Shown here in pieces: positions 1,697 to 3,057 of a DNA stretch of 14,455 nucleotides. Every line of letters begins with the position of its first letter. Positions within the stretch are counted from its first letter, which is position 1. The translations under genes and the position numbers were made by a program. This stretch comes from a virus (lineage: Duplodnaviria > Heunggongvirae > Uroviricota > Caudoviricetes): IMG/VR virus record IMGVR_UViG_2698536576_000009, positions 1 through 14,455 of that record; one strand, written 5' to 3'. The notes under the pieces were generated by a model. The model did no database searches, was not told where the DNA came from, and saw only the letters and a list, made by a program, of their open reading frames with translations.

Positions 1697-1725
1697 AATT
1701 TAGTTTCCTCATTAAAATTGGTCAA
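1697..1725 (-). promoter_or_regulatory. candidate sigma70 promoter of the leftward early operon (PdicB-like)
   Basis: On the minus strand: -35 TTGACC (1725..1720), 17-nt spacer, -10 TAAATT (1702..1697); about 70 nt upstream of the ydfA-like start. Confidence 0.4.
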
Positions 1726-1739
1726 GAATTTTTAATGAG
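1708..1739. promoter_or_regulatory. perfect 10-bp inverted repeat (CTCATTAAAA / TTTTAATGAG) with 12-bp spacer, bracketing the -35 element; candidate operator
   Basis: Read directly: arms at 1708..1717 and 1730..1739 are exact reverse complements; the spacer contains the minus-strand -35 hexamer. Confidence 0.5.
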
Positions 1740-1809
1740 AAAACTCAATATTTAATGCAAAATAAAGCCAATACATTGAAATGTAAGGCTTTAAAATTTG
1801 TGAAGGGGG

Positions 1810-2238: not shown

Positions 2239-2268
2239 TTGACTTGAGATTCCTTTAGTTATTACTAT
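2239..2268 (+). promoter_or_regulatory. candidate rightward promoter (PR-like) for the cro-like gene
   Basis: -35 TTGACT (2239..2244), 18-nt spacer, -10 TACTAT (2263..2268); about 27 nt upstream of the ATG at 2295. Confidence 0.4.
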
Positions 2269-2294
2269 TGAGAAAACTCAACTTTGGAGGGGTG

Positions 2295-2522
2295 ATGTTT
2301 AAATCAGACGTAATTAATTTTTATGGGACGAAAGCCAAAGTAGCGAAAGCTGCTGGTGTTGATCCATCTGCTGTTTCTCAATGGGGGGAATTGGTTCCTG
2401 AAGGTCGCGCGATCCGCCTGCAAGAGGCATCCGGCGGGGAACTTCAGTACGACCCCAAAGTTTATGACGAATATCGTAAGGCAAAGCGGGCGGGGCGGTT
2501 GAACAATGAAAATCACTCCTGA
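2295..2522 (+). CDS. Cro-like regulator (DicC / YdaS family)
   Basis: ATG at 2295 directly after GGAGGGG (in-frame GTG at 2292 is an alternative); 75-aa product with an HTH-like segment KAKVAKAAGVDPSAVSQW; divergent from the DicA-like repressor. The six-frame ORF starts at 2268 on TTG. Confidence 0.75.
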   Translation: MFKSDVINFYGTKAKVAKAAGVDPSAVSQWGELVPEGRAIRLQEASGGELQYDPKVYDEYRKAKRAGRLNNENHS

Positions 2523-3057
2523 ACAGGCTCGTGAGGCTCTGGATGCATGGGTATGCCGACCAGGAATGACACAGGAGCAGGCGACGATATTAATCACGGA
2601 AGCATTCTGGGCTCTGAAAGAACGCCCGAACATCGATGTTCAACGCGTCACGTTTGATGATGGCGCGGTTGATCAACGGGCGCTGGGCGTCAACCGGGTG
2701 AAGATATTCGAACGATGGAAAGCTATTGATACCAGGGATAAGCGGGAAAAATTCACGGCGCTGATTCCGGCAATTATGGAGGCTATCCGGATCAGCGATT
2801 TCAGGTTGTATTGTGAAATTACTGATGGAAAAAGCATTACGTACATGATCGCCGGGTTAAACAAAGAATATGGCGATGTGGTGGAGTCCGGGCTGCTTTT
2901 TGCGGATCCATCTGTTGTGGAACGTGAGACTGACGAGCTTATAGAAAAAGCCATTGCTTTCAAGCATGCGTATCGTCAGCAATATCAATATTACTTTGCA
3001 GATAAACAAATGTCTGCCAGGGGTTCGTATGAGTATCGATGCACTACGATGGGCTAA
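2506..3057 (+). CDS. YdaT-like regulatory protein (CII-position gene), 183 aa
   Basis: Overlaps the cro-like stop by 17 nt and the O-like start by 29 nt; positional equivalent of ydaT after ydaS/dicC. Family assignment is from synteny and general resemblance only. Confidence 0.55.
   Translation: MKITPEQAREALDAWVCRPGMTQEQATILITEAFWALKERPNIDVQRVTFDDGAVDQRALGVNRVKIFERWKAIDTRDKREKFTALIPAIMEAIRISDFRLYCEITDGKSITYMIAGLNKEYGDVVESGLLFADPSVVERETDELIEKAIAFKHAYRQQYQYYFADKQMSARGSYEYRCTTMG

Follow-up and report, generated by a model that had tools for sequence, protein, structure and literature searches.

Two predicted P22-type operators meeting at an inverted repeat around the leftward early promoter of a Qin-like Escherichia coli prophage

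The leftward early promoter of the window, meaning here the whole 14,455-nucleotide stretch of viral DNA that was analyzed, has its -35 element bracketed by a perfect 10-bp inverted repeat, which raises the question of whether the repeat is a single operator for one dimeric regulator, a hairpin, or part of a different arrangement of binding sites. The window belongs to a lambdoid Qin/mEp460-like E. coli prophage and, over the 1,301 bp searched (1300-2600), matches strain NY1601 with 100% identity. The coordinates of the features discussed are collected in Table 1.

The inverted repeat and its genetic setting

Directly upstream of the leftward promoter and in the same orientation (1810-2217 for the gene and 1697-1725 for the promoter, both on the minus strand) lies the gene for a helix-turn-helix (HTH) repressor of the DicA family, and a Cro/DicC-family regulator is encoded on the plus strand, both proteins matching their NCBIfam models over full length with scores above the curated cut-offs. 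The N-terminal domain of the repressor is homologous to the DNA-binding domain of P22 C2 (E 2e-15), however the C-terminal domain of P22 C2 is missing from DicA-family proteins, and the short window repressor has no RecA-cleavable C-terminal domain. The Cro-like protein differs from K-12 DicC in its HTH region and is 70% identical to it over the rest. The initial annotation had named a dicF/dicB-type operon to the left of the promoter, and this is borne out by the position of ydfA and ydfB directly downstream of the promoter, by the DicF gene, and by dicB, which lies just past the left edge of the window in the identical genome. A 79-aa open reading frame at 1473-1712, with its ATG at 1712 in the left arm of the repeat, was set aside as an artefact, RefSeq and Pfam both placing ydfA at 1473-1619.

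Two further groups of features were observed in passing. The terminator-like hairpin directly after the repressor stop codon, AAAGCC...GGCUUU followed by AUUUUG, is nearly invariant among relatives; it was missed by a simple terminator scan, and the corresponding place in K-12 holds a different hairpin. Elsewhere in the prophage, Rfam matches were found on the plus strand to the sok antitoxin RNA (120.7 bits), isrK (74.3 bits) and the C4 antisense RNA (76.3 bits).

Table 1. Annotated and predicted features of the window; mismatches are counted against the motif ATGAGAAAACTCAA.
Feature	Position	Strand	Details
DicF sRNA gene, same leftward operon	175-226	minus	Rfam RF00039, 74.1 bits
Hypothetical gene	762-1322	minus	
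ydfB	1334-1462	minus	leftward operon
ydfA (DUF1391), first gene of leftward operon	1473-1619	minus	RefSeq and Pfam; own Shine-Dalgarno sequence
-10 hexamer TAAATT	1697-1702	minus	plus strand AATTTA; 17 nt from -35; promoter scan
OL1, promoter-proximal 18-bp operator (predicted)	1697-1714	minus	TAATGAG-GAAA-CTAAATT; covers -10 and most of spacer
Motif match	1699-1712	minus	2 mismatches
Left arm of repeat, CTCATTAAAA	1708-1717		1708-1712, OL1 inner half-site; 1713-1717, non-conserved promoter spacer
-35 hexamer TTGACC of leftward early promoter (PL / dicBp equivalent)	1720-1725	minus	plus strand GGTCAA; promoter scan
Right arm of repeat, TTTTAATGAG	1730-1739		T4 tract at 1730-1733, then 1734 (A or G), then OL2 inner half-site
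A4 tract (minus-strand sense)	1730-1733	minus	5-8 nt upstream of -35; 40/40 at all four positions; pi 0.0
OL2, promoter-distal 18-bp operator (predicted)	1733-1750	plus	TAATGAG-AAAA-CTCAATA; upstream of -35
Motif match	1735-1748		0 mismatches
Terminator-like hairpin with U-rich tail	1758-1800	minus	directly after repressor stop codon; -12.3 kcal/mol, z -3.97
DicA-family, P22 C2-like HTH repressor, 135 aa	1810-2217	minus	NCBIfam NF007257, 237 bits (cut-off 101); WP_001003378.1
Motif match	2200-2213	minus	3 mismatches; within first codons of repressor
OR3-equivalent site	2217-2234	plus	TATTTAG-ATAT-CTTAATA; the AGATATCT dyad; abuts repressor start codon
Predicted rightward promoter (PR / dicCp equivalent)	2239-2268	plus	TTGACT-18-TACTAT; promoter scan
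OR2-equivalent site	2242-2259	plus	ACTTGAG-ATTC-CTTTAGT; between PR -35 and -10; one good half-site
OR1-equivalent operator	2266-2283	plus	TATTGAG-AAAA-CTCAACT; overlaps end of PR -10 and start region; position of K-12 Oc and P22 OR1
Motif match	2268-2281		1 mismatch
Cro/DicC-family regulator, 75 aa	2295-2522	plus	DicC model NF007282, 165 bits (cut-off 130); WP_000476984.1
YdaT-like gene	2506-3057	plus	
sok, isrK and C4 matches, in the order listed	7816-7991, 10819-10895, 10923-11007	plus	Rfam

The two arms of the repeat are exact reverse complements separated by a 12-bp spacer, TTGGTCAAGAAT (1718-1729), as the initial annotation had described; it had also placed a minus-strand TTGACC in the spacer with TAAATT at 17 nt, and both the sequence and an independent promoter call (1697-1725, minus strand) agree. 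Transcription is predicted to start at about 1690, by analogy with P22 PL, where the RNA 5' end lies 7 nt downstream. Of perfect inverted repeats with arms of 10 nt or more and spacers of 3-30 nt, the whole window contains no other, however dinucleotide-preserving shuffles of the window contain 0.5 such repeats on average and at least one in 30% of cases (p ~0.3), so that, over the whole window, the repeat by itself does not exceed what chance would give. For the 190-bp AT-rich region that follows the repressor gene, such a repeat arises in 47 of 5000 shuffles (0.9%). The palindrome statistic is weak, and the case for the operators proposed here is built on comparative evidence instead.

That evidence makes it very probable that two P22-type operators, OL1 and OL2, lie side by side about the leftward promoter and that the inverted repeat marks where they meet. 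Two dyad-symmetric sites of about 17-18 bp overlap the promoter region (1697-1714 and 1733-1750), as expected of the OL1/OL2 arrangement of P22 and the lambdoid phages, each being an 18-bp dyad of the form TAWTGAG-N4-CTCAWTA. Because the two are inverted relative to each other, their inner half-sites (CTCAT and ATGAG) oppose one another on the two sides of the -35 element; AT-rich flanking bases happen to lengthen this 5-bp complementarity to 10 bp in the window. When the arms are extended outward to 20 nt (1698-1717 and 1730-1749) they are complementary at 18 of 20 positions, because the repeat comprises two inverted copies of the predicted 18-bp operator. OL1 differs from the OL2 core by two mismatches. 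Counted from the predicted start, OL1 covers about -8 to -25 and OL2 reaches from about -44 to -61; the center of OL2 lies ~51 bp upstream of this start and 36 bp away from the OL1 center. Each operator is the predicted binding site of a dimer of the adjacent DicA-family repressor. A possible third OL site at 1750-1765 was rejected, as it is not kept in mEp460 or Buttiauxella.

A private T>C substitution was observed in the window at position 1707, in the 4-bp center of OL1 (GAGGAAACT in place of GAGAAAACT), where 39 of the 40 distinct relatives carry T. The private C breaks the A-tract center of OL1. In P22, the operator center affects affinity through indirect readout (PMC4267663).

Conservation of the promoter region among relatives

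Of 5,426 complete E. coli genomes, about 800 contain the same immunity region at 90-100% identity, and phages mEp460 and HannyBb carry it as well. The comparison set consisted of 80 viral contigs, several genomes, and two Buttiauxella loci encoding the repressor or close relatives, with conservation of the promoter region counted over 40 distinct same-immunity sequences. Two contigs binned into metagenome-assembled genomes labeled 'Bacillota bacterium' and 'Veillonella parvula' (L013 and L014) carry this E. coli-type immunity region with a repressor 96% identical at the protein level, and these host labels are almost certainly a binning artefact rather than the true host.

Among the 40 sequences, the -10 hexamer and five of the six positions of the -35 hexamer are invariant, and 1696-1712 (TAATTTAGTTTTCTCAT) and 1735-1748 (ATGAGAAAACTCAA) are invariant or nearly so. 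The equally invariant A4 tract at 1730-1733 possibly serves as a proximal UP-element-like tract or as the flank of OL2. Between these blocks, positions 1713-1717 carry two to four alleles each (e.g., TAAAA, the common GAATG, GGCGC, TATTT, and GTTAA), and 1727-1729 also vary freely. The five innermost pairs of the repeat are complementary in 19, 14, 25, 30, and 3 of the 40 sequences, and complementarity at all ten pairs is retained in only two (median 7/10). Variants of the operator cores are one-sided in all seven cases, none being compensated on the other arm, and nucleotide diversity is 0.008 in the OL1 core and 0.026 in the OL2 core, against 0.053 at third codon positions of the repressor gene. 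In the Buttiauxella prophages, whose repressors are 75-76% identical, TGAGTTTTCTCA and TGAGAAAACTAA are kept on either side of the -35 element, while the flanks of both operators have diverged and are otherwise unalignable. The invariant operator cores, the variable bases at 1713-1717, and the retention in Buttiauxella together argue that the conserved units are two separate sites of 14-18 bp, each with its own dyad axis, and not a 10-12-10 dyad.

These data bear directly on the proposal that one dimeric regulator, possibly other than the immunity repressor, takes both 10-bp arms as half-sites 22 bp apart and so clamps the -35 element. The perfect 10/10 complementarity centered on the -35 and an arm spacing of about two helical turns would suit such a protein, however the innermost pairs are poorly kept among relatives, Buttiauxella and mEp460 retain only the CTCA/TGAG parts of the arms, and the right-arm motif recurs upstream of the cro-like gene without a partner arm. 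The comparative data thus largely refute this proposal, which we consider highly improbable. In the initial annotation, the region had been read as an operator of the leftward early promoter of the dicF/dicB-type operon, recognized by one dimer through a single 10-12-10 dyad; the former part of that reading holds, but the unit of recognition must be revised, as the inner five nucleotides of the left arm vary.

The immunity regions of mEp460 and HannyBb are alike at about 91% DNA identity, both operators included, however their inner spacer bases differ (CTCATTATTT...TTTTGATGAG) and they therefore lack the perfect 10-bp repeat. No published operator analysis of mEp460 or HannyBb was found, the literature search on mEp460 returning mentions in prophage typing only.

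Operator-like sites upstream of the cro-like gene and in related immunity systems

The 13-mer TGAGAAAACTCAA at 1736-1748, within OL2, occurs a second time at 2269-2281, shortly before the Shine-Dalgarno sequence of the cro-like gene. When the two intergenic regions were shuffled, only 2 of 3000 pairs shared a word of this length (p ~7e-4). A search with ATGAGAAAACTCAA allowing up to three mismatches gave six matches in 14.4 kb where 1.95 are expected, four of them in the immunity region. The match at 2200-2213 was rejected as an operator copy, since its DNA is not kept in Buttiauxella, where the protein sequence changes, and it is probably a coding coincidence. The matches at 12130-12143, inside a long open reading frame, and at 13451-13464 lie outside the immunity region and fit the chance expectation of about two.

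In the repressor-cro intergenic region the same site family is represented by three putative operators, equivalent in position to OR1, OR2, and OR3. The strongest sites of the window have AAAA centers, and the OR3-equivalent site is conserved in the Buttiauxella and Citrobacter loci. The initial annotation had contrasted the symmetry of the repeat with that of the AGATATCT dyad and had seen in this a hint of a distinct regulator or of composite control. The comparison does not support either suggestion: the operator sequence of the leftward promoter is found again upstream of the cro-like gene, and the AGATATCT dyad has the same 7-4-7 frame as the other sites, from which it differs mainly at position 5/14 and in the center, and sits at the position of P22 OR3.

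The third copy of the operator also bears on whether the repeat acts as a hairpin, either in RNA, terminating or stabilizing the repressor transcript at its 3' end, or in DNA as a cruciform. The minus-strand RNA does fold at -15.7 kcal/mol (z -4.15), but the copy at 2266-2283 has no local partner, and the one-sided operator variants of relatives break pairs rather than compensate for one another: among the 40 distinct relatives, no compensatory changes keeping the pairing of the repeat were seen. Nor does the repeat have the G+C-rich stem and following U tract of an intrinsic terminator, its stem being AT-rich and followed by UAUCAUCC, and a terminator scan gave no call there. A better terminator-like hairpin lies upstream at 1758-1800, and the leftward transcript would start downstream of the repeat. 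A role as a hairpin is accordingly judged exceedingly unlikely.

Two predicted operators at the leftward promoter agree in position with annotated operators of a characterized phage when the protein_bind and promoter features of P22 (BK000583) are compared with the window. The annotated PL of P22, TTGACC-17-TAAATT, has hexamers and spacing identical to those of the window. P22 OL1 (ATTTAAGACTTCTTAATT) lies between -35 and -10, as does its positional equivalent in the window, and P22 OL2 (TTTGAAGAAAACTTAAAT; TTTGAAG-AAAA-CTTAAAT) lies upstream of -35 at a position matched by the window OL2, with center-to-center distances of 35 bp in P22, 36 bp in the window, and 35 bp at K-12 dicBp. P22 OR3, OR2, and OR1 likewise align position for position with the three intergenic sites of the window, OR2 being nearly identical (ACTAAAGATTCCTTTAGT in P22, ACTAAAG-ATTC-CTTTAGT, against ACTTGAGATTCCTTTAGT). 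The P22 C2 protein binds 18-bp sites through contacts at positions 2-7 and 12-17, leaves the central 4 bp uncontacted, and prefers an A-tract center (PMC4267663). The two systems differ in their half-sites (TTGAG/CTCAA in the window, TTAAG/CTTAA in P22) and in the recognition helices of their repressors (SSISLWES and NVAISQWER, respectively). In addition, P22 immC has an OL3, whereas the window has no conserved third site resembling it, and the leftward operon contains ydfA, ydfB, dicF, and dicB in the window but gene 24, ral, and other early-left genes in P22.

The dicA-dicC locus of the K-12 prophage Qin resembles the window in gene order, repressor length, and flanking genes. A comparison with PdicB of Qin, as the initial annotation had suggested, revealed the same -35 hexamer at dicBp, flanked by two operator-like sites 35 bp apart, and the K-12 motif recurs at Oc upstream of dicC, paralleling the recurrence upstream of the cro-like gene in the window. 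However, the K-12 operators, TTGTTAG-N6-CTAACAA, indicate a different immunity specificity, and the window repressor is 56% identical to K-12 DicA with the differences concentrated in the HTH. At Oc, DicA binding has been shown genetically, single-base mutations abolishing binding in vivo, and DicA did not bind the operator-like sites Om and Oa when assayed in vivo (PMC3441716), so that occupancy cannot be assumed for every site of operator-like sequence. The location of DicA binding at K-12 dicBp is described as unknown or of low evidence (PMC7567609).

Four immunity types can be distinguished that share the ydfA flank and the overall layout: type A, represented by the window (TTGAG-AAAA-CTCAA), type B, that of K-12 (TTGTTAG-N6-CTAACAA), type C, with variants of the K-12 motif (loci L009-L011), and type D (CTTAGG-AAAA-TCTAAG; locus L012). 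In each type, a type-specific motif flanks the leftward -35 on either side and is repeated upstream of the cro-like gene of that type. The recognition helix reads S(G/D)SSISLWES in the window and Buttiauxella and (H/N)V(S/T/A)(I/V)SQWER in K-12 DicA, types C and D, and P22 C2. Among these heteroimmune relatives the predicted operator motif changes together with the repressor recognition helix. DNA homology between the window and the other immunity types (the K-12 DicA type and two others) stops at about 1691-1703, at the -10 hexamer and the outer half-site of OL1, and the predicted operators therefore travel with the repressor module. The TAATTTAG shared at this boundary may explain why the outer half-site of OL1 is CTAAA rather than CTCAA.

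One locus, from Citrobacter braakii (L017), encodes a repressor 66% identical to that of the window. Downstream of its repressor stop codon, the OL2-like site resembles type A (TTGAGTTTTATCA) and the OL1-like site is different (GGTTAGTAATCTTAACC); this operator set may be a hybrid or an intermediate.

Predicted regulation and variation of the leftward promoter

The DicA-family repressor is the obvious predicted ligand of the leftward operators. At the leftward promoter we infer binding, repression, the start site, and possible cooperativity as follows. With OL1 occupied by a repressor dimer, RNA polymerase would be denied the -10 hexamer and the spacer, and a dimer on OL2 would provide extra occupancy, possibly cooperative, while covering the region contacted by the polymerase alpha subunit. 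The center-to-center distance of 36 bp corresponds to about 3.4 helical turns, a spacing at which the two dimers do not share a face of the helix, and cooperativity between OL1 and OL2 is therefore uncertain. Occupancy of OL1 and OL2 would keep the ydfA-ydfB-dicF-dicB operon silent in the lysogen. The repressor would likewise act at the three related sites of the repressor-cro intergenic region.

In lambda and P22, Cro and repressor share operators, and the Cro/DicC-like protein of the window probably uses the same sites as the repressor. That this protein, and not the repressor, is their main user would be compatible with two operators at the promoter; the shared operators of lambda and P22 speak for it, as does the HTH of the Cro-like protein, which has also diverged from that of K-12 DicC. 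However, the change of recognition helix was found here for the repressor, and in K-12 deletion of dicA derepresses dicBp 22-fold while deletion of dicC has no effect in the repressed state (PMC10448788). We regard mainly Cro-like use of the sites as very unlikely, and the repressor as their predicted principal ligand.

Judged by its sequence, the window is a heteroimmune member of the P22/DicA-type immunity switch, and its arrangement is standard and already understood; the current understanding of such switches is unchanged by these findings. What is added is the assignment of putative operator coordinates and of the consensus TAWTGAG-N4-CTCAWTA to a widespread, uncharacterized immunity type. 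The window also provides a natural specificity variant of the well-studied P22 C2-operator pair, with an A to G change at operator position 5 and V33S and Q37L in the recognition helix, and it suggests where DicA-type repressors may contact the dicBF promoter, whose DicA site in K-12 is described as unknown.

The segments between the invariant operators are themselves unusual in their variability. Among 53 distinct same-immunity sequences, nucleotide diversity is 0.46 at 1713-1717, 0.46 at 1727-1729, and 0.29 at 1691-1695, compared with 0.053 at third codon positions of the repressor gene and 0.052 in the 5' UTR, making these segments 5-9 times more diverse than the synonymous sites of the adjacent gene. 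Two of these hypervariable islands flank the -35 element (1713-1717 and 1727-1729) and the third separates the -10 hexamer from the predicted start (1691-1695); all three lie where neither repressor recognition nor the promoter hexamers impose constraint. The leakiness of a promoter that drives toxic cell-division inhibitors might be tuned here by diversifying selection or by patch recombination recurring between co-resident Qin-like prophages, a tentative reading that we hold to be rather unlikely. If it were true, the perfect 10-bp repeat of the window would represent one allele of a hypervariable spacer.
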